A DNA stretch of 64,000 nt from Octopus vulgaris. Its lineage: Eukaryota. Both the position numbers and the translations under genes were made by a program. The stretch spans positions 18,352,001-18,416,000 of the forward strand of contig OX597826.1 in NCBI GenBank assembly GCA_951406725.2. Direction: 5' to 3'. Numbering within the stretch: the stretch's first letter is position 1; every line of letters begins with the position of its first letter. Shown piece after piece: positions 4,796 through 59,342 of this stretch. The notes under the pieces are model-generated. The model ran no database searches, was not told where the DNA came from, and saw nothing but the letters and a program-made list of their open reading frames with translations.

Positions 4796-5798
4796 TTAAC
4801 TGTACATCGGTAGCCCTGTATATACCAATGCATTACAATGTCTACCTTCTGTATCTGAATAAGGTCACTACTTTTGCCAGTTTATGGAAACATCTAGACA
4901 TTTAAGTGCCTGCTTTTAACTTTTCTATTATTCACCACTGAGAGATGTGATGGTATGTCAATGTTTGCCACTGTTTTTAAAATATTGGAGAGTTGAGAAA
5001 TAACTCTCTTCTAGGATTAAATAACAACTAAAACAGGTTTATATATTTTTTCCTTTAATTTAAAGTATCATTTGAATTCAGTACAACTTATTAACACTGT
5101 TCCTTGGAAATTCCAGCAGTAAAATATTCTTTCTTGTGGTTTCTATCTCCAATGAGTTATATAAAGTTTTTATCGAAAAGAAACAGGCCAAAGTGAGACG
5201 AAGCTCGATATCAATAACAAAACGAGATATCAACCCTTTTTCAACCTATCATTGTACAGATTTAGAAAGCTGTGACTTAATAGAAAGGATACAGACTGAA
5301 ATTGTTACCAGCTGAAATACAAAGAACTTTATAGTTCAAAGATTTGACTAACATTTGTGAAATACAAATATATTTGAAGTTTGCTGAAAAAGTATAAAAC
5401 ATATTTTGCCAAGTTTTAGCACCAGTTCATAAAACTTGGCATCTCTCTGAGATTTTAGTGTTTTGTTAAAAAGCAATTAAGGAGTTTAGCGGAGAGGGCC
5501 AACATGTGATGTGGTACTGAAGGTGCCATAAAAACATGCTTTAACATCCTAGTCTCTTTACTGAACAAAGACACCAAAGAGATAATAGCTGGAACATTGC
5601 AGAGGTTTTGAATTTAAAACAACATCAAAGAAAGATAACTTTGGATTGCTACCAATAGTGACTATGATTCATTCAATGTGGAAATATTTTGAAATGTAAT
5701 AAATAAAGAATGACTATGGAGAACAACCACCCTATTAAGATAAAGCTGGTTTTGTTCAGTTTTTAATCAATAAATGTACTTGGTGAAATTAGTTTTAC

Positions 5799-5924
5799 CT
5801 AAACAAGAAAATCCGTCAGCAGCAATTGTATATGCGTCTTTTGGGCAAGTGCATTTGAAAGATCCAAACAGGTTTACACATCCCATACTGCAGCCACCAT
5901 TATTCGATTCGCACTCATTGATAT
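5799..5924 (-). CDS. Calcium-binding EGF exon (4th of 4)
   Basis: Minus strand: tttcttttgaag|AT ATC AAT GAG TGC ... TGT TTA G|gtaaaa; 126 nt, phase 1-1. Encodes (D)INECESNNGGCSMGCVNLFGSFKCTCPKDAYTIAADGFSCL. Confidence 0.92.
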
Positions 5925-6737
5925 CTTCAAAAGAAAATAAAAATAATAATAACAATAATGATAATAGCAATAATAATAACAACAGCAAAATAAAAACAAG
6001 ATATAAAAATGTATAAGCAACAGACCAGAACACATTTCAGCAGTGAATGCAAGACATTTCAATAGAAAAATGGCAAAACTACAATTCTAAGGGTCTGGCA
6101 ATGTGACTAGATATGTTCCAGAAAACTGTTCAAGTATTTAGCATATTGATTTTATCATTACAACATTGAATGCACAAGGGAAGGTGAGAGAAAGAGAGAG
6201 AGGGAAAGGGAGAGGGAGAGAAAGAGAAGAGAGAGAAAGAAAGAAGTAAGAGGAAGGTAGGAAGGAAAAGAGAACTATATCAAAGAAATTCCTGGCAAAG
6301 ATCATTGGTTGAACTTTGTCATTTAGGGAAGATACGATTACCAATATTCAAGGAATCTGCTATTAGCCACTGATGCCAGCAGGTTTTTATGTACTGTTAA
6401 TAAGTGACAGTATAAAAATGATTATATTAACTATATAAAATCATGATTTATGTGTTATATACACCGTTAAAATGTACTTTACAAAATGGCTGTTCTCTAT
6501 GAATAAAAATATCTTCTTGTAACACAGAAGCAAAATATGTTATCTGTTACCAGATTTATAGGCTCTTCTTCCTTTCTTCCAGCCATACAATCTGCTGTTC
6601 ATATATTCTGCCTCTCCTGTGAATTCAACCTCCTAAACCTAAGACTCCAAGTGGAGGGTAGACGTATATATAAGTGGAGGCTAGATGAGTATAGCAACTT
6701 AGTTGGCTTTCGTTACTCAATCTCAACATTGCTTTTC

Positions 6738-6782
<45 letters not shown>

Positions 6783-7587
6783 GTTTAACGTCTGCTTTCC
6801 ATGCTAGCATGGGTTGGATGATTTAGCTGAGGGCCGGCGAACCAGATGGCTGCACCAGGCTCCAATCTTGATCTGATAATATCAATAATGATAATAGCAA
6901 TTATCCTTCCTTCTGATAATATATTTAACATTAGTCTTTAGTATCACTAGTTAGAAATATAACTTTAAACTACCAATATCATATCACCAACACTGCCATG
7001 ATGATCATCAGACACCATCCTGACATTTTCTGACTCACAACAAACTTTAATCCACTGAACAATACTCCTGTCACATTGAAACTAGTGAAGTTCCTTCAAT
7101 GACCAACATCCTGTTCAGCAGTCAGAATAAAATCTGAACTTTGATTAATAAACTATCTTACAGGAAGATCTTTAAACTTTAGTTCATTATCCCATTACAT
7201 CTTCCCTCTATCCACCTCATACCATTTTAATGAAATTACTTCTCTTTCAACTAATAACATGCATTATAATGTGTTTCTTTCACTAAACCAATCACACAAA
7301 GATTACAAGCAACCCTTTATGCTGGGGAATGTTGCCCTTTAAAAATGCATTCTCCCCCTCACAATACACTAAGGTATTTCAAACCTCAACATCAATATTA
7401 TTCATGATTCCCTCAAAGAACCTGGACACTGTGAGCTTTGTTCTTTTTTTCTTTGAAACAGTACAAAAATATAATCAACATCAAAATCATTGCTTCTGTT
7501 ACCAGCAGAAAAAAAAACTGGCTACAGGAGTGGCTGTAGGGTAAGGAAGTTTACTTCCCAACCACAAGGTTCCAGGTTCAGTCCCAC

Positions 7588-8943: not shown

Positions 8944-9904
8944 TGAGGGGAAGTCAAAAATTATCCACACTTTCACCATAACATATCTTTATTACTATCA
9001 CACTGCCTTCTGTGCATGTGTACTTATAGTTCGTACTATTGTGGTCACATGATCAACGTTTGAGCCTAATCATGCCATTTTCTTTCTGGCTTTACAGTGA
9101 AATCGTGGTCATCCACTAAGAATGTGCATCAATGAAGAACAAAGAGAAGGGATCCAATTTCTCTGGTTGGGAGATTGTGTCACGTACTGAAATTCATCAG
9201 AGGCTTTGAGCACAATTGGTTAATAGTTTCAACAGTCTGGGCTTTGGCGTTTGGTGCAAATTGCTGGCTTCAGTTTCTTGACCAGCAAAGCACTGTATCT
9301 TGCACTATTGATTGTATACCCCTTTTCCAGGTAATCTTCCAGTATAGGCCCTTTTGAGTGCCAAAAATGGGTTAGCATCACCTTTCCTGTGGAAGACTGA
9401 GTCTTGAATTTCTTTGTAGCTGACAAGCCAGGATGTTTCCACACCACACTCTGTCTTTGAGATTCTGCCTCATAATGATGGACCCACGTTGCATCTCCTG
9501 TGACTATTCTGCTCAAAAATTCCTCACCCTCATTGTTGTAGTGATTGAATAAATGTTGGAAAATCTCAAGATGTTTGCACTTGTGCTCCGCAGTAAGCTC
9601 TCTTGGCACCCATCTTGCATAGACTTTATGGAAGCTGAGCTCATCGTGGATGATTTTCAGCCTCTGACACATTTTCCAGCCAGAGAAATCAGATCACGGC
9701 TCTTTGTTCTCCTTTGATGCACATTGCTAGTGGAGCAGCCACGATTACACAGTAAAGCCAGAAAGAAAATTGGTGCAATCAGACTCAAACTTCGATCACA
9801 TGGCCACAATAGTACCAACTATGAGTATGCATGCACAGAAGGCAGTGTGATAATAATAAAGATATGTTATGGCAAAAGTGCAGATAATTTTTGACTTCCC
9901 CTTG
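8944..9904 (-). mobile_element. Rearranged mariner element with long (~230 bp) inverted arms
   Basis: ORF 9229-9672(-) has WVPRELT, IVTGDATWVHH and GKVMLT mariner motifs. Termini read (c)GAGGGGAAGTCAAAAATTATC; arms are 8944-~9172 and ~9672-9904. Confidence 0.88.
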
Positions 9905-14390: not shown

Positions 14391-14508
14391 AGACTAAACT
14401 ATATCCTAGGCACTGGATTGTTATCTATAATTAATTTTTGAAAGCATAATCTACCCAAATGTTACCTTACTTGCCAATATATGTTCTGCTATTACAGCAT
14501 TTACTTAC

Positions 14509-14634
14509 CAATGCACTGGGACTTGTCTTCACTAAGAACAAAACTCTTTTTACATTTGCAGTAGTAGGATCCAACAGTATTAAAACATTTCCCACCACTG
14601 CAGGCTTTCCTATAACGTTCACATTCATTTAGAT
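14509..14634 (-). CDS. Calcium-binding EGF exon (3rd of 4)
   Basis: Minus strand: tttttgtag|AT CTA AAT GAA TGT ... TGC ATT G|gtaagt; 126 nt, phase 1-1. Encodes (D)LNECERYRKACSGGKCFNTVGSYYCKCKKSFVLSEDKSQCI. Confidence 0.93.
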
Positions 14635-15559
14635 CTACAAAAACAAATAAAAAAGAAATAATCAATATGCATGTGTGTATACCTACCTTCCTACATACAC
14701 GCAGGCATGCATATACATATATAACAGCAGTGTATATATTTTGAGATTTATTATATACAAGTAAACTTCTGACACAAGTGAATGTGATACTATAGTTGGT
14801 ATTTAAAGGAGACAATTTTTTCAAGTTTTCTACAATGAACTAAAAAAGAGAAAAATATGAATAACTTTGTGTACAATATTTTCTTTATATGTTAGATAGT
14901 TTAAATTCCTACTTTTATGAAAAATGCACCAAACAAATAAAAATTTAATTTGAAAGGATCTTGAATTGAAATAGATACCATTTTTCCTGACCTTTTACAC
15001 CAAGGTATTATTGTTATGGTTATTTCTTACAATTTTGCTGTAGTGACATGATCAGAGTAACAAACAGCTTCAGATTTACAAAGAAGGAAAGAATTGTTTT
15101 ATAACAACCACACCAAAATGAAGCTTAAATGGAAGGAAGTAAAATGAATCCATTTAATGATATCTGATCATGTAAGGCAGTGAGCTGCTGGAATCATTAG
15201 CTTGTTGGCCAAAATGTTCAGAGGCATTTCATCCGTTTTTACATTCTGAGTTCAAATTCCACTGAGGTCTTTCATCCTTTCAGAGTTAATCAAATAAGTA
15301 CCAATTGAGCACTGGGGTTGATTTAATTGACTAAACCTCTCCCCCAAAATTGCTGGCCTTGTGTCAAAATTTGAAACCATTATGTCACTATTATACTTTA
15401 AGTATGGCATGACAATAACAATATCTTATTTTTCCTCTGCATTAAATCTAAAGTCTAGTTCCCATATATTAAAAAATATTGTCAATATTCATTTAAATCA
15501 GATTTTAAGTTAGAAACTTCTGTGTCATGGATATGTGATAAAATTAAAATTTTCTGATG

Positions 15560-16250: not shown

Positions 16251-16643
16251 AACACAGATGTTTAACCCTTTAGCTTTTAAACTGGTTGCATCTGACCCAA
16301 ATACTCTACCTGTTTTATGTACAAACCAGCCAGATCTTGCTTGTCATACTTATCCTATAATGTCATTCTAAAAAATAAACAATCACATCCATGAAATCTC
16401 AAAGCTACACAATAATGCATGAGTAATTCAAAATAATGTGAGTAAAAGAAGCATTACATTTGACAGAATAATCTGAATGCTAAAGGCTTGATCCAGAATT
16501 ATAACAACTAACATTTTATGTAACTATTTTTAAGAGTCTAAATTAACAAAAAAAAAAAGATGGGCTACTCTTTTATATTGATTTTTTCATTTTTTTAGCT
16601 ATCTCTGCAAAGAGTGAAGCTGATTCTCAAGAAAGTCACTTAC

Positions 16644-16769
16644 CTTCACAGGAATGTCGATCTGCTGCTAATTTGTAACCTTTTCTCTCACAACGACACT
16701 TATATGAGCCATGTATATTTTCACATCTGTCAGAACAGCCACCATTATTGATGGAACATTCATCAAAGT
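16644..16769 (-). CDS. Calcium-binding EGF exon (2nd of 4); absent from the ORF track
   Basis: Minus strand: tttttcctccaag|AC TTT GAT GAA TGT ... TCC TGT GAA G|gtaagtg; 126 nt, phase 1-1. Encodes (D)[41 protein letters not shown]. Confidence 0.93.
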
Positions 16770-17086
16770 CTTGGAGGAAAAAACAACAGTGAAAGAAAAA
16801 GACAAAGATCAGATATTATTGGAAGCAATATAACTAAAGATTGTTAGTACAAGTCTCAATCCATCTTTCAAAATTGTCAAAGCAATTAACATTAGTTAAT
16901 CAGTTGGAAAATTGAAGGTTAATCAAAAAGACACAAGAAATAGTGATGACACTAGATCATAGAGCAGAATCGTCTTACACGTAATCATATCTTTAACATT
17001 TTAGTTTCTAATTAAAGTGAGTTTTTAATCAGACATGGCTGGGAAAAATAAACATTTAGTGCATATAATTAGAGTAAAATATAACT

Positions 17087-17920: not shown

Positions 17921-19180
17921 CACAGCCATGACACAAGTAAATAGACATCCATAAAACATTGTTTTATGTTTACTTTATCTTGTAAAGATTTATATATTTT
18001 TTTATTAATTGACATTTTTATGTTTCAGGTTCAATATGTGACTGTTTAATCATATCACACACAAAAGAAACCTTGGGACTGTCTGAATTTCAAAGAGGCT
18101 ATATTGTGGGTCACTTTGAAGGTGGACATAGTCAGCATAAGATTGCAGAAAATCTTGGGATCCTGCTTTCTACAGTTAATAGAGTGATTGTGTAATTCAC
18201 CAGAGAGGGGAAGGAGTCTACATCACCTCACCCAGATCAATTGGGGCCTTCTGACAGGACCCTTCTCTTTGTTAAGAGAAGTGTGGAGAATAATCCTCAT
18301 TGCAAGGCCTCTGACATAGCAGAGCAAGTTGATGTCAATCCGAGAACAGCTGTCAGGTATCTCCACAAACTTAGTTACTATGGCAGAGCAGCAAGAAGTA
18401 AGCCACTTCTTTGACTAGCCATTATCAAGCAGAGAAAAGATTGGGTCAGTGAGATGGTGGCAGGACCACTAGCATATTGTGACACTCTGTCATATTCTCC
18501 AATGAGTCCAGATTTGCTGTATTTCCTGACTGTGATCAAGTGTGGGTCTGAAGTCTCTGTGATCAAGGATTTGATTTGAAAAGATTGCAGCCAACAATGA
18601 AACATGGCAGCTATTCTGTGATGGTCTGCAGAGCAATTTGGAGCAATGGTCACTCAGAGCTGGTGGAGTGTGAGGGAAACATAAAATCAGATAAATATGT
18701 GTCCATATTGCAGAAAGGACTCCTTCCAATCTTCTCCAGTGGTAAAATTATTAAAGAAGGCTCTTTATTTATGGAAGATGGGGCTCCTTGCCACATAGCT
18801 AAAATAACTCAAGATTGGTTGGATGAGAATGGCATTAAAAAGCTTCCATGGCCAAATCAGTCACCAGATATGAACCCTATTGAACACCTCTGGAACATAA
18901 TGGACAAGACACTTCATAAAAATAACAAGAAAGCATCTTCAAAGCCAGATCTTTTGAGATTACTGCATGAAACTTGGCCAGAAATTCCTCAAGAGAATAT
19001 TCGTCATCCGATCAGTAACATGCCTAATAGGGTCCTTGCATTGAAAAATGCAAAGGGCATGTCCACTAAATATTAAATATTCACATTATAATGATTAATA
19101 AATAATTTGAATGTATAATTTCAGATTTAAATAAATTTTAACGATTATAATAGTGTCAATTTACTTCTGCCATGTCTGTG
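17921..19180 (+). mobile_element. Full-length but inactivated Tc1-like DD34E transposon
   Basis: ~28-bp TIRs (CACAGCCATGACACAAGTAAATAGACA / rc CACAGACATGGCAGAAGTAAATTGACA) with TA flanks. ORF 18576-19076 has MEDGAPCH...[15 protein letters not shown] with D-x34-E; the HTH region upstream has stops and frameshifts. Confidence 0.92.
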
Positions 19181-27310: not shown

Positions 27311-28213
27311 TGCACTGAATTAGATGCAAAAAATGAAAGCAAATGCAGAGGCAGTTCTGCTTACATAACCATCATGGTTGGAGAGTAGAAGAAAGAAGTA
27401 TTCCTCAAAGTGGCTAAATATTCTTTGGGAAAAAATTCACATTCTCACATTGAATTCACTTATACAGATCTTTTCAAATGGTTTGTCATTCACAGTCATT
27501 GATATATATGATGCAAATATTAAAATATTGCACTCAGATATATTGTAATAATGTCATCAGATATTAGGGTATATCAAATAATTGGCTTTACTTGGATTCA
27601 TATTAAAAGATAATTCAAATTGTTACAGAAACACCACTGCAATATCTTTAGTCTCAGAGAAGATAGGATTTCCGAAGTAGGCACAAAACCAGGTATTTAT
27701 AGGATTGGTGAAATTATGTGATTTTTATATTCAGAAATGGTCTGTTAAAAGATGTGTGGGAAGAGAAATTGCAATCAAAACTGTTTTGCATACTTGATTC
27801 GCTGTGAAGATGCAATAATTCCAGTTAATTGATGTAACTCTGTTTGTATGCGATTATATTGAACAATTTTTTTTAACATCCTGAACCACAACAAAACACT
27901 GCAGGAGGGAGACTTTTATAAAGTTATTCAACACACTAGAAATAACAAGTAAATCTCCCTCAAATCACAACTTACCATTTAATAAAAAAATAAATAAATG
28001 AGGTATTGAATAATGAATGCATTCCTAAATAAACTACACCCAAATATGGAATCGTTATGGCTTGAAAATATTTAATCATAGATTTGCTTAATCAGAGTTG
28101 ACATAAGATGAAGCAATAACAACCATAATTTCTTCAGATAAAGAAAGGCTTGCAAGAAAGAAGACTGAGAAGCAGAGTTGATAGAAGAACAAAAAAAGAA
28201 TCGAGTTCCTTAC

Positions 28214-28342
28214 CATTACAAGAATGTGGATTCCTGCTATCTACATATCCAGCTACTGAACAGTTACATCTGTAAGATCCTGGAATGTTGATACAGCGCC
28301 CAGGACATGGTGTATTCTTTAAAGTTACACATTCATCAATGT
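28214..28342 (-). CDS. Calcium-binding EGF exon (1st of 4 in transcription order) of a multi-exon EGF-repeat extracellular protein
   Basis: Minus strand: tttcacag|AC ATT GAT GAA TGT ... TCT TGT AAT G|gtaag; 129 nt, phase 1-1. Encodes (D)IDECVTLKNTPCPGRCINIPGSYRCNCSVAGYVDSRNPHSCN: six Cys, DxDEC start and CxNxxGSYxC hydroxylation consensus. Confidence 0.93.
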
Positions 28343-31080
28343 CTGTGAAAAAAATAAAATGACAATGAAGAATTATTTTGGAGACAAACCAAGTATCTTT
28401 CATAAATCAAACAATAAAGCATGCCTCATGCAAATAATCCCCATTATTATCAACATCATTTGCAGAAGCAATAAGCATAGCAACAGTAGTAGCCTCAGTT
28501 CAGTCTCTTTTACATGCTGATTCAAAATGGATAGATTTACCAGAGAGATATCCTTCAGCTATTCCTTCCTGTCTTGGTTTCATATCTCTGCTGCTGAAAT
28601 AGTTTTTATTGAACAAATTATCACCATTATTACATGGTGCAGTGGAATCGATTCAATGATACAATGAAGCATCTAGTCTGGTGCTTCATATTTCATCAGT
28701 CAAGTCCACTGGGAGTTAAAATTGTCTTGTATTTCTTCAGGATCAGTGAGTTGAGTAGCAAGGAGGAACTGAAGACAATTCAGTTAATTAAAATATTTTT
28801 CTTCCCAAAAACCATCTTATTTCAAAGCATAAAAACAAATCTTTTGTTATTAGTAGTTTTGTTATTTTCTTGTTTTATTAAGAAATGTCTCGCAGCATTT
28901 CTTCTCTTTATTTCACATTCTGAATTTCAATACTGCAGAGGTGAATTTCCCTCTCATCTTCTCAGGATCAATAAAATAAAGAACGAATGAAGTTGATGGC
29001 ATTAACTAACCTCCTTCTGCAAATTTCAGGACTGATGCCTATGTTAGAAATAATTATTATTACAAGGGTATTAGCTGGCAGAATTGTTTCAGTGTGAAGA
29101 AAAATGCCTTGCAGTTCAGGCTGTAGTTGACACAGCTTTTATCCTTCTAGAGTCAATAAAATAGAGTACCAGTCAAATACTGGGGCTGATGGGTTTGACT
29201 ACCCCCTCCCCCCACTTAAAACTGCTAGCCTAAATTAAAAACTATTATCACTGATGCTGTTGCTGTTAACATTATTATTTCTGGTAGAGGTACCAGGGTG
29301 CATAGCTGGTTCAGGACAAACTCTACAGAAAAAGCAGCCCAGTCAGCCAGGTCTGATTGAAATATGAACAAGGTGCCAGGACATTGCACATGCGTTGTTC
29401 AGTCACCAAATATTTCTAACTTGTGAAGTTATGTTAAACAGCTTTTTTGTTCCATGTAGGACAGATCTGGATATCAGCCAAGTCTACCATGAAGATAGTC
29501 TCACTGTTTTTGCAATGAGGAAGAGTAGGTAGTTTTCCTTTGTCTGGTGACCATGACAGGAAAAGTTAAGATGACCATTTTCTTCAGCCAAGCCCTTATT
29601 ACTGGGAGAGAAAGATAAAAGATGAAAGGGAAGAGTTGTTTTCCTTTGAATTTGCAGAAAAATGGATGTTTCAGAGTATATGAGATTTCTTTATTGATTC
29701 TAGTTTCAGAGTAGCCCAGGATTTATTTAAGAGACATCGATTGCTTAAAGATGGTTATCCTATTTTGGGGACCAGAATCATTACAGAGTTGGAAAAAAAT
29801 GCCATGCAATGCTTCTGCCTCTTCACATTCTTAGTTCAATATTTTCTTTCGTTTTGTCTGTCTTTAAATTCTGAGTTCAAATTCTTCAGGGGTTCACTTT
29901 GCCTTTCATTCTTTTGGAGTTGATAAAATAAGTACCAGTTGAGTACTAGGGTCAATGTAATTCACTTACTTCATTCCTGAAATTGTTGGTCTTGTACCAA
30001 AGTTTGAAACCCTTATTAAAAAGCTATTTAAGCTTTGACAGTCATAAGTGTCCTGCTCAAAAACACAACACAAAGCTACAGGATATGCACAACCCAGTGT
30101 ACAATATTTTATGTGCTTAAAAACTGAGTCCTTCAATAATATTGATTGCAAATTTTGGCATGAAGCCAGCAACTTCAGGAAGTGGATAAGCTGATTACAT
30201 CATCCCCAATGTTCAACTGGTACTTATCCAAAAAGATGAAAGGCAAAGTTGACCTTGATAGAATTGGAACCCAAAACATAAAGACAGATGAAATGCCGCT
30301 AAGCATCTTGCTTGGAATGCTAATGATTTTTGCCAGCTCACCACCTCTCAATAATATTGACAATTTATTCCATTTGGGTGGGAAAAGAAACAACCAACAT
30401 AATACAGGTATTTTTATAAAACCTGGTGCAAATAATGTTACATCCAACAATTTGAAATGAGTAAACACTGAATTAGGTACCATTGATTTATTTCATTTTT
30501 CTATACAAGAAACTATTCAGCTATATACCTTTTTACCTCTTTTACTATTTTCCTTGTTTTAGTCATTAGATTGTGGTCATGCTGGAGTACCACTTTAAGG
30601 AATCTTAGTAGAATAAATTGACCCTGGTACTTATTCTTTTTTTATTTTTCCTTAAGCGTGTTGCTTATTCTACTAATCCCTTTTGCCAAACCACTAAGTC
30701 ACAGAAGTGTAAACATCAGTTGTCAAGCAGTGGTGGTGAACAGCCATAGACACACACACACACACACACACATGCAACAGGCTTCTTTAAGTTTTCATCA
30801 ACCAAATCCACTTCCAAGGCTTTGGTCAGCCTGAGGCTATAATAGAAAACACTTAACCAAGGTGCTATGCTGTGGGACTGAATCTGGATCCTTGTGGTTG
30901 TGAAGCAAACATCATACCACACAGCTACATCTGCATATGAGGAAAAAAAACAATAATTTGTGATCTCCAGGGTTTTTTGAAAGACCCCAGTAGCAAAAGA
31001 AAGATTTGCCACAAAGAATTAAAACCTGCTCAGAAATCTGTTTGCTAACAACCAGCCACATCCCCTGCTCCAGTCAAAAC

Positions 31081-49699: not shown

Positions 49700-50790
49700 C
49701 CCAGGCTATCCAGGAAGGGGCCATACCCAATGATTGGTGTAGCAACTTTATAGTCAACTGCTACAAAGGTAAAAGGGATGACTTAGAAGTAATTACAGAA
49801 GTACCATATTAGGGGATCAAGTCATGAAATTTACTGAGAAGCTCATAGCTCAGCTAATTAGGAAGAGGAGTAGCCTGGATGAGATGTAGTTTAGTTTTGT
49901 ACCAGGGAAAAGCACTGCTGATTCTATCTTCCTAGTAAGGCAAACTACAAGAGAAGCATTTAGTGAAAAACAAACCTCTGTACTTAGCATTTGTTGACAT
50001 AGAGATAGCCTTTGACGGGGTTCCTCATTCTCTCATCTGGTGGTTAATGCAGAAGCTAGGGATAGATGAGCAGTTGGTGAGAGCCATACAAGCCATGTAC
50101 AAGAATGCTGTCAGTAAGGTGAAAGTCAGCAATGAGTATAACAAGGAATTGAGTGAGCAGGTAGGAGTTACCCTTGAAAGCTCCTCTATGCTTGACAACC
50201 TTGTTCTTATAGCAGAATCTCTACTAGAATTAGAAAAGAGATTTCAGGTATTGAAGCAAGAACTAAAATCAAAGGTTTAATTTAGCAATTTAGCAAAGAT
50301 CAAAGTGCTAGTAAGTAGGAAGGCAAATAAATAACTAATCCCTTCAGGGAGATGACCCTGCTCATTATGTAGAAAAGGTGTTGGTATAAATTCCATACAG
50401 TGCAAGCTATGGACACATGAGGGTCTGTACAATCGCTGAAAGGTTAACAGAAAAAGTAGCCTTTAAATGTAGCCAATGTACAAGCACAATAAATACTAAG
50501 AATATACAAGAAATAGATTTCCTTAAATGTCCAGGAGATCCTTAGAGATAGTAGATAGTTTCTGTTACCTAGATGACCAAATTAACTGCAGTGGACGTGG
50601 CTCCAAAAGTGTAATTACTAGAAATAAGAACAGGCTGGGCAAAGGATCTCTCCCTCAGAGTGAAAGGCAGACTGTATGATGCCTGTGTACAGACTGCTAT
50701 GCTACATACTGAAGCATTGGCTGTGACTGCAAATGACAAGCAAAGTCTTGTAAGGACTGATGCCAGCATGCTCCACTGAATGGGCAATCT
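49700..50790 (+). mobile_element. RTE-clade LINE fragment (RT, PHD, thumb)
   Basis: IPNDWCSNFIVNCYKGK; KNKPLYLAFVDIEIAFDGVPHSLIWWLMQKLG; PHD remnant near 50340-50480; SLRVKGRLYDACVQTAML. Confidence 0.82.
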
Positions 50791-52960: not shown

Positions 52961-53129
52961 TAGCTCAATAGTTTAAACCCACCAAGTGACCTTAAATAAA
53001 CTACTCTACTCTGTGCTTATGTTAATTACTCCTTCTTGGAAATGACATGCTGTACTGAAGCTCCAATACAAACAAGAGTGGATAGAGCTGGAAAAGAAAT
53101 AAAATCAGAGAGGATCAGAGAGGGAAAAC

Positions 53130-53644
53130 AACACTGACAAGTTAGCTGACCAGATGTTAGGGGTGATGTGGTCACAGAAATTGTCTGACAGCCATGACTG
53201 GGTTCTCCTGTTAGTGTGGCACAGTACAAAGTCCTGTTCCCAGACATAGGGTCTTCCAACAGCCACCCTCTTGATCCAGGGCAGCACTAATTCCTCCAGG
53301 CATTTGATGTAGGCCTCTGTGTTGAGTCCGAGGCTGTGTGGGAAGATGAATGGAGGCATATCATCACCATCACAAGTTATCACTCCAAACACCCTGATGT
53401 TGACTGGATGTTTGATTTTTATCACTCTCTCTACATGTTCCTATGGGTGCATGTTTGTATTGGAGCTTCAGTACAGCATGTCATTTCCAAGTTTCTGGCA
53501 GAGTGAATTGCATCATGGTGCTATTTTTCTCATAGACAGTGCCCAACTGACCCTACTATACTGTATAGTCAACAAAATAAAAAACAAACAATGCATATGC
53601 ACAGAATTAAAAATATAAAATAGCGACAATTTACCCATCACACC

Positions 53645-53647: not shown

Positions 53648-53685
<38 letters not shown>

Positions 53686-53796
53686 GGTCCCGGGTTGAGT
53701 CGGGGTTAACCACAGTAAATAAGGTACTCAATACATAGCAGAGTAAATTAATTTATTATATAGAAGGAGCTTCTACAGGACTAGAACTTAAAAAGA

Positions 53797-54752
53797 ACCC
53801 TCGACTTAAAAACCTCACTTTATTACCCGTACCACAAACCTAATGAATCCCTTAGATATATAGACATTAATTCCAACCACCCCAAAATATATTAGACAAC
53901 CTAGTAAAAAGTGTCTCAATTAGAATATCTAGCCTGTCCGCTACTGAAGATATCTTTAATGCCGCAGCCCCCTATTACAACGAAGCCCTGGCCCGCAGTG
54001 GCTTTAAAGATAAGATCACCTATACTAGTATAGCCCCACGCCAACCCAGGAAAAATAGGCGAAGACACATTAGCTGGTACAACCCCCCCTTCAACCGTGA
54101 GGTCGCTACACCTGTAGCTAAAATCTTCTTCACTCTCCTACAGAAACACTTCCCCACCCAACATAAGTACTATACTATCCTAAATAAGAACACCATTAGA
54201 CTCTCCTACTCTACCACGCCCAATCTAGCCAGGAACCTAGCCAACAACAACGTGAAAAAACTTAATATATCTACTCTTTCCGAGGCCCATCCAACATCCG
54301 ATAGCAATTGCAACTGCCCTGATAAAACCACCTGCCCCCTCAACAACAACTGCCTACAGAGGGACCTCGTCTATACATGCAAGGTACGATCAGGCCCCGA
54401 TGATAAAAGAAAATCGTACATCGGAATGACGTCAAACAGCTTTAAGACCCGCTGGTACGCCCACACACACTCGTTCCGGCGACCTGATAAATCCAACCAA
54501 ACTACCCTCGCCGCCCACATCTGGTACCTTAAAAGGAACTCCATCCCCTTCAAGACCAAGTGGAGACTACTACAGAAGGCGCGTTCGTACACAGGAGGCC
54601 ATACCTGCTGTGACCTTTGCATTTCCGAGAGCCTAGAGATCTTGTTCGCCAAAGGCCATCTCCTCAACAAGATCTCAGAACACTCCCCAAATTGCATGCA
54701 TAAAATTTATGCAAACTACAAGAACTATAGACCCACCCGGCAACCCGATTGA
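53797..54752 (+). pseudogene. PLE ORF remnant: RT thumb, basic linker, CxCx5C zinc knuckle and GIY-YIG endonuclease
   Basis: TLDLKTSLYYPYHKPNESLRYIDINSNHP, one frameshift at ~53885, then an open frame 53886-54752: ...RKNRRRHISWYNPPF...CNCPDKTTCPLNNNC...LVYTCKV...SYIGMTSNSFKTRWYAH...CDLCISE...LLNK...CMH. The W(F/Y)NPP and CxCx5C motifs fit the Naiad clade as I recall it. Confidence 0.88.
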
Positions 54753-54984
54753 CGACACCCCACCCACAAAAACCTCCCAACCCCACCGTTCCCCCAGCAC
54801 CCCCGATTAACTTTCCTCCTAAGACTATTCACAGATTGTATATGTACACTTGTATATATGTATTGTATATATGTATAGAAATGAATGGGTGTTAGTAGGA
54901 ATATACGCATGTATGTGAGTGCGTGTATATGTATGTGTATGTGTATGTACATGTGTATGTGTATATGTGTGGGTTTTTTTTATA

Positions 54985-55043
<59 letters not shown>

Positions 55044-55120
55044 GTATGTGTATGTATGTGTATGTATGTATATGTATGTGTATATATATATGTGTATATA
55101 TGTGTGTATGTATGTGTATA

Positions 55121-55177
<57 letters not shown>

Positions 55178-55512
55178 ATGCTCGTGTGTTCATGTATATG
55201 TAAGTATGTAGAGTTATGTGTATGTGCATGTATGTATGTATATATACATATGTGTAGATAGGTATATACGTGTATGCTTATATGTATGTTTCCGTCTGTA
55301 TAAAGGGTAACTGCATGTGTATATATATCTATTATTTATTATTCATTATTTATTACATGAGTATGCGTTTGTATGCATGTATGTATTTATGTATATAAGG
55401 AGGCGCGTGAGTGTGTATATGTGTATGCATTTGTATAAACATATGTATACATTTATGCATGTATGTGCTTGTGTGTATATGTATGTATATATATATATAT
55501 GTATGTATACAC

Positions 55513-55546
<34 letters not shown>

Positions 55547-55677
55547 GTGTATATGTATGTGTATGTGTATATATATATATATATGTGTAAAAAAATGTGT
55601 GTGTAAATGTATATATATATGTGTGTGTAGGTGTGTGTATATATGTATATATGTATATGTATATAGATATATATATA

Positions 55678-55714
<37 letters not shown>

Positions 55715-56055
55715 GTGTACGCTTGTGTGTTTATGCATATGTAGGTATGTAGAGTTATGTGTGTATGTATGTATATATACATATGTGTAAATAGGTATAT
55801 ATGGGTATGTTTATATGTATGTATCCATCTGTATAATGGGTAACTGCACGTATATATATATATTATTATTATTATTATTATTATTTGAGTATGCATGTAT
55901 GTATATATGTGTATGCCTGTATGCATGTATGTATTTATGAACATAAGGAGGCGCGTGTGTGTGTGGATGTGTATGCATATGTATAGACATATGTATACAT
56001 TTATGCATGTATGTACTTATGTGTATATATAGATGTGCGTGTGTGTGTATGTGTA

Positions 56056-56108
<53 letters not shown>

Positions 56109-56977
56109 ATGTGTATATATGTATGAATGTATATGTGTATGTATATGTATATATATGTATATATATATGTATATGTGTATGTATATGTATGTATGTGTAT
56201 GTATGTGTATATGTATATGTGTATATATATTAATTAGTGTATATGTATGGACTAGTCTTCTGTGGGTGTATTGAGGTATGTATGTGTATGCGTGTATGTA
56301 TGAGTATGTGTGTACGTGTGAGTGTGTGGGCGTGAGTGAGTGCTTGCGTCCGTATCAGTGAGTAGATAGATAAACGGAATCTTTAGATCATCCCTTGAGA
56401 CCGGCTGACCGGTCAAGATAAAAATAAAGATATAAACAAAAGTAGTAGTACTAATAAAATTAAAATAAGAGAATAAAAATGTGTGTGTATGTGTGTGCAT
56501 CTATATGCATGTGTATATATATGTGTGTATGTATATATATGTGCGAGTGTGTATACATATATGTATATATATGTATGTATATGTGTATTTGTGTGTACGT
56601 ACATGGGTACGTGTATATATATGTATATATATGTATATGTATATGTATGTGTATGTGTATGTATGCATATATATATGTATGTATATGTGGGTATGTATGT
56701 ATATGTATAGATATATGTGAATATGTGGGTGTAGATATGTGTATATATATATATATGTAGATGTACAAGTGAGAGTCTCCTTACTTACCTAAAACTCTAT
56801 TTTTCTATTTATTTTTTTATTCTTTTATTTATTCTTTTATCTACTTTACCACCGATTCCTTTGACCACTCCCCTAATAATGACAGTTTTGCGCCATGCCT
56901 ACCCCCAAAAAAGTCCCCCACCACCACCCATTTAAACCTGCCTAAATGTATAAATGCCAAAACAACTCTTGTCTACT

Positions 56978-57028
56978 AGCTTCCTGATGATTTCTTTTGA
57001 ATGAAACAGTTCTAGTCCTGTAGAAGCT
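56978..57028 (+). ncRNA. Type I hammerhead ribozyme in the PLE pLTR
   Basis: AGCTTC-CTGATGA-tTTCttttGAAt-GAAA-CAGttctagtcCTG-TA-GAAGCT. Stem I AGCTTC/GAAGCT, core CUGAUGA and GAAA, short stem II, stem III ACAG/CTGT, GUA triplet; predicted cut after 57022. Confidence 0.85.
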
Positions 57029-57214
57029 CCTTCTATATAATAAATATATATATATATATATATATTTTATAGAAGGAGCTTCTACAGGACTAGAACTGTT
57101 TCATTTGAATGAAATATATATATGTAGAAGCTCCTTCTATAAAATAAATTAATTTACTCTGCTATGTATTGAGTACCTTATTTACTGTGGTTAACCCCGA
57201 CTCAACCCGGGACC

Positions 57215-57257
<43 letters not shown>

Positions 57258-57670
57258 TTCTTTTCTATCCCACTAAAGTGTACTAGGAGGAAAGATTCGA
57301 ACAAGAGTGGATAGAGCTGGAAAAGAAATAAAATCAGAGAAGATCAGAGAGTGAAAGACATAGTTGTGCTAGATGAGCTGGAGTGAAAAATTTTCAGAGG
57401 CGACTGAAAGAATAGGCAGAAGATGAGGAGGGATAAGATAGAAAAATATGTAACCATAAAGTGAAGACAGAGAAAGAAGGACTAGAAAATGACATATTGG
57501 GGGAGAAAGTAAGTAAACAAAGGGGAAATTAGGGAGGGGAAGGGAATATAGAGAGAGACAGAAACTGGCAGAACTTCAAAATACCCCACCAAAAAGTTTG
57601 ATGTCATACATTCATGTGATGTCAAACTTATTTTAATTTCCTCTTTTAGCTTCTCTTTAATCTTTTTGGT

Positions 57671-58021: not shown

Positions 58022-59223
58022 TATAAATGTACAAAGAGAGAGAAAGAGAGAGAGAGAGTCTCATGAACACATCAATATATGTATATATATATACACACAC
58101 ATATATATTTATACACATTCACACACACACACACACACATACATATACCTACATATACTTGCGTATGTATATGCATGCATATATAAATGTATGTATTTAT
58201 GTATGTGTGCGTATATATTTTTACACACGCACAAACACACACACACACACACATACATGCATATGGAGATAAGTTAGGACAATTGTGCTGATGACACCTA
58301 TTTAGACAGAAACGTGCATTTATGCGTGTTTCCTTTACCTATAGACAACAGGCCTGTCCTTTACTTTAGTAGCATGTCAACTCTGTAGAAGTCTTGAATC
58401 ATGAGATTATTTCTTCTTTTGTCATTAAGCTGGGCTCAGTTGTCATTTGGTAATTGTGACACAATCTTTAGAAGTAGAGAATTCTAGATCAAGAATTTAC
58501 ACTGTATGGTATTTGATATATCTGAATTTGCCTCTGTTGTTCAGATACACGTTACTAGCCTCTAAATGCTATTTCTCTTTGTTCATTTTCATATAAGTGA
58601 ATAATTTAGCCGGACAGGAAATATATATGTCTTGTCCAGTTAAATTATTCATTTACATTTACTGTTTACATAATTTTTATCATGTAGTTCAGTGGGGAAT
58701 TAGTTAGCAACACCATTCACATATGAGCCAAAGTAATAGCTGTCAGTAGTAAACTCCACAGATGTTTTCCTTATTCTATGGTGCAAGTCATTCATACAAC
58801 TAACTTTTTATATACAACCTGTTATTCTGGACTGACTTAAATAAACTACTCTGCTCTACGTTTCTATTAGGTATTTCTTCTCTGGGTCATTGTTATTTTA
58901 GATGGTGTGAGCTTGCCAGTAATTTAAGGAAATAATAATTGGAAAATGAAACTTCAAAAATAAAGAGGTTTTTATTGTGTTAGCCTCAATAAGATATTGG
59001 TTTCAAGTTTTGGCACAAGGCCAGCAATTTCAGGAGGGGATGCAAATCAATTGCATCACCCTCAAGCGTTTCACTGGTATTTATTTTATCAACCCCTAAA
59101 GGATGATGGGCAAAGTCAACCTCAGCAAAATTTGAACTTAGAACATAAAGACAGATGAAATGCTGCTGAGCATTTTGCCCCACACACTAATGGTTCTGCC
59201 AACTTGCCACCTTAAATCAGAAT

Positions 59224-59342
59224 GGCTACAGCACCAAGGTTTCCCAAATGGTTACCCGTCTAAGTACGAAGTAGTTTTGATATTGCTTAACTTCAGTGAT
59301 CAGATGAGAACTGATGCATTCAGCATGATACGGCAGAAAAGC
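59224..59342 (-). pseudogene. Full-length degenerate 5S rRNA pseudogene
   Basis: Reverse complement GCTTTTCTGCCGTATCATGCTGAATGCATCAGTTCTCATCTGATCACTGAAGTTAAGCAA...GTACTTAGACGGGTAACCATTTGGGAAACCTTGGTGCTGTAGCC; 119 nt, colinear with eukaryotic 5S including box A (GAAGTTAAGC) and box C-like sequence. Confidence 0.85.

Follow-up and report, generated by a model that had tools for sequence, protein, structure and literature searches.

A type I hammerhead ribozyme in a Penelope-like element of Octopus vulgaris, likely situated at the start of the element's capped RNA

The stretch analysed here, hereafter the window, comprises 64,000 nucleotides of Octopus vulgaris contig OX597826.1 (positions 18,352,001 to 18,416,000; assembly GCA_951406725.2, 2.8 Gb in 227 contigs). 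It holds two adjoining insertions of Penelope-like elements (PLEs) in (TA)n, the first of which carries a hammerhead ribozyme. Positions are also numbered from the ribozyme, +1 being 56978, the first base of stem I, with the predicted cut between +45 and +46. The features of the locus are the following.

53648-53681, no strand: (TA)n target tract, left flank
53682-53788, minus: inverted left arm of the main insertion, carrying the long tail together with the ribozyme's 3' portion, +31 to about +140
53797-54752, plus: 5'-truncated ORF with the end of the RT/thumb, CxCx5C linker and GIY-YIG endonuclease
54753-56764, plus: microsatellite-rich 3' UTR of about 2 kb, part of the element and common to other copies
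56765-57045, plus: unique part of the 3' pseudo-LTR, up to the short end (+68)
56949-56954, plus: putative TATA box
56978, plus: probable transcription start (+1), first base of stem I, from copy ends and TATA spacing
56978-57028, plus: type I hammerhead, predicted cut 57022/57023, from the scan, genome copies and relatives
57019-57037 (+42 to +60), plus: predicted rival hairpin over the cut site and the 3' strand of stem I
57046-57062, no strand: (TA)n between the two insertions
57063-57102, minus: inverted short arm of the second insertion (sister subfamily), antisense to +23 to +64 of the ribozyme region
57099-57218, plus: long-tail arm of the second insertion
57219-57257, no strand: (TA)n target tract, right flank

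Both strands of the 64 kb window were searched with a generic type I scan, and the hammerhead at 56978-57028 on the plus strand was the only one found; the chance level, taken from 40 block-wise dinucleotide shuffles, was a mean of 0.025 matches under loose rules and 0 under strict ones. The core motif behind such a scan is C3-U4-G5-A6-N7-G8-A9, G12-A13-A14-A15.1 and U16.1-H17, and it is present in the window as CUGAUGA (56984-90), GAAA (57003-06) and GUA (57020-22), together with three helices whose open ends lie at stem I. Stem I has 6 bp (56978-83 with 57023-28), stem II has 3 bp closed by U56991-U57002 and a 4-base loop, and stem III has 4 bp, counting A15.1-U16.1, with an 8-base loop containing CUAG. 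The U-U takes the place of the usual G10.1-C11.1 pair, which is common, not universal. Coordinates, core, stems, U-U pair and CUAG loop all lie where the original prediction had placed them, and the Penelope-like, (TA)n-inserted context that it proposed is upheld. Rfam, which it had named as a check, returned no hammerhead family at E<=10 on a 101-base stretch around the motif, and no hammerhead among 150 of 186 matches listed for a 6 kb stretch. The microRNA-like Rfam matches at 57006-57099 were rejected as a microRNA gene, being hairpin-driven and due to the antisense arm. Site-specific self-cleavage after H17 is predicted for the motif, and the ribozyme itself is real, of a known kind and ordinary for PLEs.

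The host of the ribozyme is a 5'-truncated Hydra-clade PLE occupying 53682-57045, and the ribozyme is located in its right-hand pseudo-LTR. The truncated ORF is 92-99% identical in DNA to other copies. In the full copy L041 the order is pseudo-LTR, tail, 722-residue frame, UTR, pseudo-LTR and tail, and the layout is that of EN+ Penelope-like elements, with a single ORF encoding RT followed by GIY-YIG, pseudo-LTRs, a tail and an inverted truncated arm. The RT and GIY-YIG motifs were read by eye; Pfam and PDB searches of the element ORF gave no RT or GIY-YIG match, and PF01541 or PF00078 is carried by some relatives. The translations of L041 and L042 contain DKT, the CxCx5C linker, and CxxC and CxH around the endonuclease E and N, and CCHH is absent.

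These traits agree with the definition of the Hydra clade in the portion of Craig et al. 2021 available to us (PMC8557442), where hammerheads are described for Penelope-1_NV, Penelope-1_HM and Hydra-1_Obim; the named members were compared by eye from the paper's supplement. Also shared are the C-terminal GIY-YIG, the (TA)n target, which is the insertion target of copies across the window family, the inverted truncated arm and the tail at one end, whereas the element has RWR where the Hydra clade has RWK. In File S2, hammerheads with U/U closing stem II occur, as do stems III of 4 bp, and Penelope-1_NV has stem III strands identical to those of the window motif; however, loop III in File S2 has 1-3 bases against 8, and stem II is weaker in the window. 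Published Hydra-clade elements are under 3 kb, whereas the unit of the window family measures about 4.8 kb because of its 2 kb microsatellite UTR. Since Hydra-1_Obim differs in its ribozyme sequence and, as judged by eye, clearly in its protein, the window family appears to be absent from the list in the part of PMC8557442 covered. Hydra-clade hammerheads in pseudo-LTRs, the U-U closure of stem II, inverted arms and tails are thus already published, and what is unusual in the window motif is the 8-base loop III.

Two observations concern the body of the element. Its own 3' UTR contains 2 kb of TA/TG microsatellite (L041:5413-7650; window 54753-56764) and, because this UTR includes (TA)n runs like the target, the element may spread both the microsatellite and its own insertion sites. 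Furthermore, about 55 ORF copies start at the same residue (around 54 of the query) and contain two TAG stops, possibly an amplified non-autonomous deletion derivative. A reading of the family as a non-LTR retrozyme was rejected, because the family possesses an ORF and its short copies take the form of inverted pairs, 41 of them in the census, not of head-to-tail repeats each with a hammerhead.

Ribozymes of the window type number about 7,000 in the genome. The core pattern was matched at 7,165 sites and its reverse at 31; of the first 100 matches listed, 97 belong to the element family. The tail anchor has 9,246 matches against 119 reversed. In 129 arms (130 scored, one chance match dropped, the core being fixed in the search pattern that supplied some of the loci), variation in stems and core is only sporadic. 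The commonly varying sites are +11 (N7), +18 to +20 (loop II) and +34 (loop III), and the chance of five variable sites falling at N7, loop II and loop III is 5.5e-4. Stem covariation among genomic copies had been proposed earlier as a check. Inside the family no compensatory change occurs among the arms compared, because the stems do not vary; between families the stems differ and still pair. Related metagenome elements with about 40% protein likeness carry a type I hammerhead in 55 of 77 loci (shuffle mean 0.17), amounting to 69 motifs, 67 of them on the sense strand, and the stems of the 50 distinct ones differ but stay paired, in a scan which itself requires pairing and core. U-U closes stem II in 22 of these 50, and loop III has 0-3 bases in all of them versus 8 in the window, where the longer loop looks like a 6-base tandem duplication with 5 of 6 bases identical. 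The roughly 50 distinct Hydra-type metagenome hammerheads (L228-L304) would be enough for a new covariance model.

The 5' ends of copies were read from 100 tail-anchored arms, the first listed on contig C1 and chosen regardless of 5' end. Twenty end at +1, 29 at +2 to +10, 15 at +11 to +40, 11 at -40 to 0 and 24 are longer, and the one end at +41 to +50, namely at +45, is a chance match. (TA)n is joined directly to +1 in 107 rows (control 0). At 80 distinct places among the first 100 such joints listed, a hand count of the base before +1 gave G in 49, T in 12, C in 11 and A in 8. This G is untemplated, as neither element nor target has a G there; by eye, 9 of the 49 cases could derive from the inverted arm, and at a matched control site (+37), whose rows are mostly chance matches, G stood in 2 of 34. 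Moreover, a TATA box begins 29 bases before +1 in six of six natural copies from different subfamilies with different spacers. Of 46 relatives, 13 have TATAWA at a distance of 30-42 bases ahead of the core, some of the 13 being close kin and the strict motif being absent at that distance from the other 33 (1,000 shuffles: mean 1.9, maximum 7). Contigs from public runs, data in which RNA ends are not visible, have loose ends at +1 in three out of the four runs; the pattern is therefore not peculiar to the assembly, and one joint in these contigs has a single G before +1. Because 5' ends peak at +1, 29 bases past a TATA box and often with an extra G, the element's capped RNA likely begins with the ribozyme.

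According to the excerpts available, L1 insertions that are capped and full-length are distinguished by an additional G (PMC11702581), untemplated G and T are present at R2 junctions as well (PMC13000458), and the Penelope of D. virilis has a TATA-less internal promoter (PMC2377424). A start at stem I, the extra G and the absence of ends at the cut site were not found for PLEs in the literature searched, which lay outside Repbase, Dfam and most subscription journals, nor in the accessible part of a 2026 retrozyme preprint.

At the cut site itself, no peak of 5' ends was found among copies, although it was looked for in three ways. Arms losing homology within +42 to +46 number 124 (control 5), and the control window +36 to +40 has 84 (control 0); about 17 of the first 100 arms listed for +42 to +46 are fold-backs on a 6-base internal repeat. 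Joints with (TA)n near +46 number 85 rows against 18 reversed, such fold-backs included. As ends are not concentrated at the cut site, the RNAs serving as templates are for the most part uncut, and the ribozyme is likely seldom cut. Some cut templates may exist as rare cases, because a few double insertions end at +44 to +47 on both arms (L092/93, L097/98 and L102/103). Loss of G+46 or G+49 in double-insertion arms (L053-L202; 7 and 13 of 82 versus 1 and 0 of 47) was considered as a scar of cleavage and rejected, as public-run contigs show no such deletion at 2%; these losses are probably assembly errors in palindromes.

The copies have two fixed 3' ends, at +68 and about +140, and each of the 41 short double insertions has one long and one short end. 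Both arms belong to the same subfamily in 37 of the 41 (random expectation 0.21). By analogy with the anole element in vitro, the paired ends fit two start points of reverse transcription, one for each DNA end.

Folding calculations, whose energies ignore tertiary contacts and protein, put the hammerhead fold at -7.3 kcal/mol, whereas the most stable fold of the 51 bases reaches -7.6; the hammerhead fold would thus be accessible, not dominant. The original prediction had credited the motif with a longer stem III than minimal forms and with possible cleavage as a monomer. The first part stands, as the stem III hairpin has -1.4 kcal/mol and closes better than in 48 of 48 relatives (median +2.1, minimum 0.0), but efficient monomer cleavage is not supported, given the missing excess of ends at the cut site and three features of the predicted folding. 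A strand-swapped self-dimer of stem III reaches -12.8 versus -2.8 for two hairpins, and -15.2 in a common loop III variant with a longer palindrome. Stem II has -0.1 versus a median of -4.45 in relatives, 45 of 48 of which have a stem II at least as strong. Stem I has a probability of 0.99 at 51-54 bases, and its probability falls from 0.97 to 0.24 when nine more bases are made and the rival hairpin at 57019-57037 forms, a fall so large in only 4 of 48 relatives. Monomer cleavage is therefore predicted to be possible, not favoured. Published parallels, as far as the cited texts were available, would agree with a weak monomer that is helped by dimerisation or protein: minimal PLE hammerheads are inactive alone and weak as dimers (PMC4209133), an axolotl hammerhead closed by U-U cleaves 22% in an hour as a monomer and much better as a dimer (PMC7229834), and the anole PLE hammerhead cuts only with the element protein, uncut RNA being the main template (PMC11167929).

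The window copy has a further impediment. In the second insertion the long arm has ribozyme positions +30 to +42 replaced by TA filler, with no core and a broken stem III, while the 40-bp antisense arm at 57063-57102 brings the stem I probability to 0.00 in folding calculations once about 110 bases are transcribed. The fold of the window copy is thus predicted to be abolished by its neighbour.

The reading that we favour, at a probability of roughly 0.6, is that the hammerhead makes up the first 51 bases of a capped transcript and cuts slowly, mostly as a dimer, the window copy being blocked by the antisense arm. RNA polymerase II would start 29 bases after the TATA box, at +1, and most of the RNA would stay uncut because the rival hairpin would form about nine bases after stem I is complete. 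Reverse transcriptase would prime both DNA ends in (TA)n from the two start points, +68 and about +140, and where it starts near the RNA 5' end it would run off at the cap, leaving tiny inverted double insertions. The most probable function of the ribozyme would be occasional cutting at both pseudo-LTRs, assisted by dimerisation or protein, which might free a unit-length RNA to be circularised. This is the weakest step; circularisation of PLE RNA after cutting is proposed in the accessible text of PMC4209133. A circle copied all the way round would give back the upstream TATA box, and only more-than-unit copies would regain a promoter, because a linear RNA beginning at +1 lacks its own TATA box. 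A seamless more-than-unit tandem does exist (L227 beside L041, units 99.4% identical). Cutting at both repeats followed by circularisation is our best guess at the simplest route to such tandems, but these can also arise without circles, by read-through or by template jumps, of which a +62/G/+1 joint seen in public-run contigs would be an instance.

Extended to the whole Hydra clade, the hammerhead might be the first structure of a capped mRNA and act as a dimer-gated self-decapping switch, leading uncut RNA to translation and reverse transcription and cut RNA to circularisation or decay. We regard this extension as doubtful; if it holds, the genome itself preserves a direct record of the cap site and of the uncut state, in the form of thousands of tiny inverted insertions.

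The main rival of the favoured reading, which we consider unlikely, is that the ribozyme acts as a brake, stripping the capped 45-base leader from the element mRNA at high RNA or protein levels so that the uncapped RNA decays. Its location at the probable cap end, about 140 bases before the start codon, is consistent with this, as are the favoured dimer, the near absence of genomic copies from cut RNAs, and the fact that hammerhead-free Naiads outnumber hammerhead-bearing families (PMC8557442, in the part available). However, rare cutting explains the missing cut-site ends equally well, and the family still reached thousands of copies.

Less probable still is an efficient monomer ribozyme that cuts the element RNA and, as originally suggested, any plus-strand transcript running through. 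It could draw on the only negative monomer stem III energy in the comparison with 48 relatives, on the intact stem I at 51-54 bases and on fungal PLE hammerheads with a long helix III, which work as monomers (PMC4209133, excerpt). Against it stand stem II near 0 kcal/mol, the dimer energy and the rival hairpin that follows within nine bases, and for about half of the sampled arms the RNA template was unbroken at the cut site and as far as +1 to +10. Cutting of passing transcripts is unlikely at this locus, as the antisense arm is predicted to disrupt stem I and no plus-strand host exon was found in the window. Host exons, of EGF-calcium type, were found on the minus strand only (5770-6036, 14504-14839, 16639-16815 and 28137-28406), and the 76 of 108 candidate frames scanned gave none from 28.4 kb to the window end or in the 40 kb beyond.

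A very improbable alternative is that the fold has a non-catalytic role: its palindromic loop III might let RNAs pair, it might bind protein, or it might help to transfer the short cDNA to the 3' repeat in a strong-stop-like manner. The longer palindrome of the common loop III variant would suit it, the tail is as conserved as the ribozyme, and core mutants of the anole element left insertion in vitro unaffected (PMC11167929, in the text available). However, the core bases are kept across families with about 40% protein likeness, although their presence is a condition of the scan, and pairing of different RNAs is not evident, because the arms of double insertions so regularly share a subfamily. 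Equally improbable is that the +1 peak reflects joining at the self-complementary AGCU of stem I, not a transcription start: of the 27 arms with their end at +1, 12 have a perfect palindrome around it, and such joints can inflate the peak, but the other 15 have none, the direct (TA)n joints show their G excess, a second AGCU at +48 and CUAG at +35 have no such peak, and the TATA spacing is fixed.

Set beside other known systems, as described in the available parts of the papers, the favoured reading finds both precedents and differences. Minimal metazoan PLE hammerheads (Cervera and de la Pena 2014, PMC4209133) share the pseudo-LTR location, the palindromic loop III, thousands of scattered truncated copies and a low predicted monomer activity; the window motif differs in its closable stem III, in its very uniform copies and in lacking G10.1-C11.1, there called highly conserved. 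Poseidon of Anolis (PAc; Frangieh et al. 2024, PMC11167929) likewise starts reverse transcription at two points, which correspond to the short end and the tail, extends both DNA strands and uses uncut RNA as the main template, whereas its ribozyme overlaps the ORF start and that of the window family lies about 140 bases upstream, at the probable cap end. HHR_Amex2 of axolotl non-LTR retrozymes (PMC7229834) has the same U-U at the base of helix II and a weak monomer with a better dimer, the latter predicted here; it belongs to short non-coding tandem repeats with demonstrated circles, whereas the window family is autonomous and its circles are only proposed.

The role of the hammerhead in PLEs is stated to be unclear in the available portion of PMC8557442, and a young, uniform family offers a genome-wide record that bears on it. 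This record holds a start site, a cap-like extra G, two priming sites, one for each end, and almost no cut templates, and the region +1 to +140, the rival hairpin and the long loop III are exact features that can be tested.

Other repeats occur in the window. A 62-base direct repeat, 94% identical (53066-53127 and 57295-57356), flanks both Penelope-like insertions and is not a target duplication. Tc1/mariner transposase remnants lie at 9232-9693 (minus), 18196-19073 (plus) and, recognised by eye only, 53105-53440 (minus), and a LINE-type reverse transcriptase fragment with a weak Pfam match lies at 49939-50277 (plus). Finally, a 5S rRNA match at 59223-59341 (minus) scores 57 bits, above the Rfam gathering score, and has several broken pairs; it is likely a pseudogene or a 5S-derived repeat.
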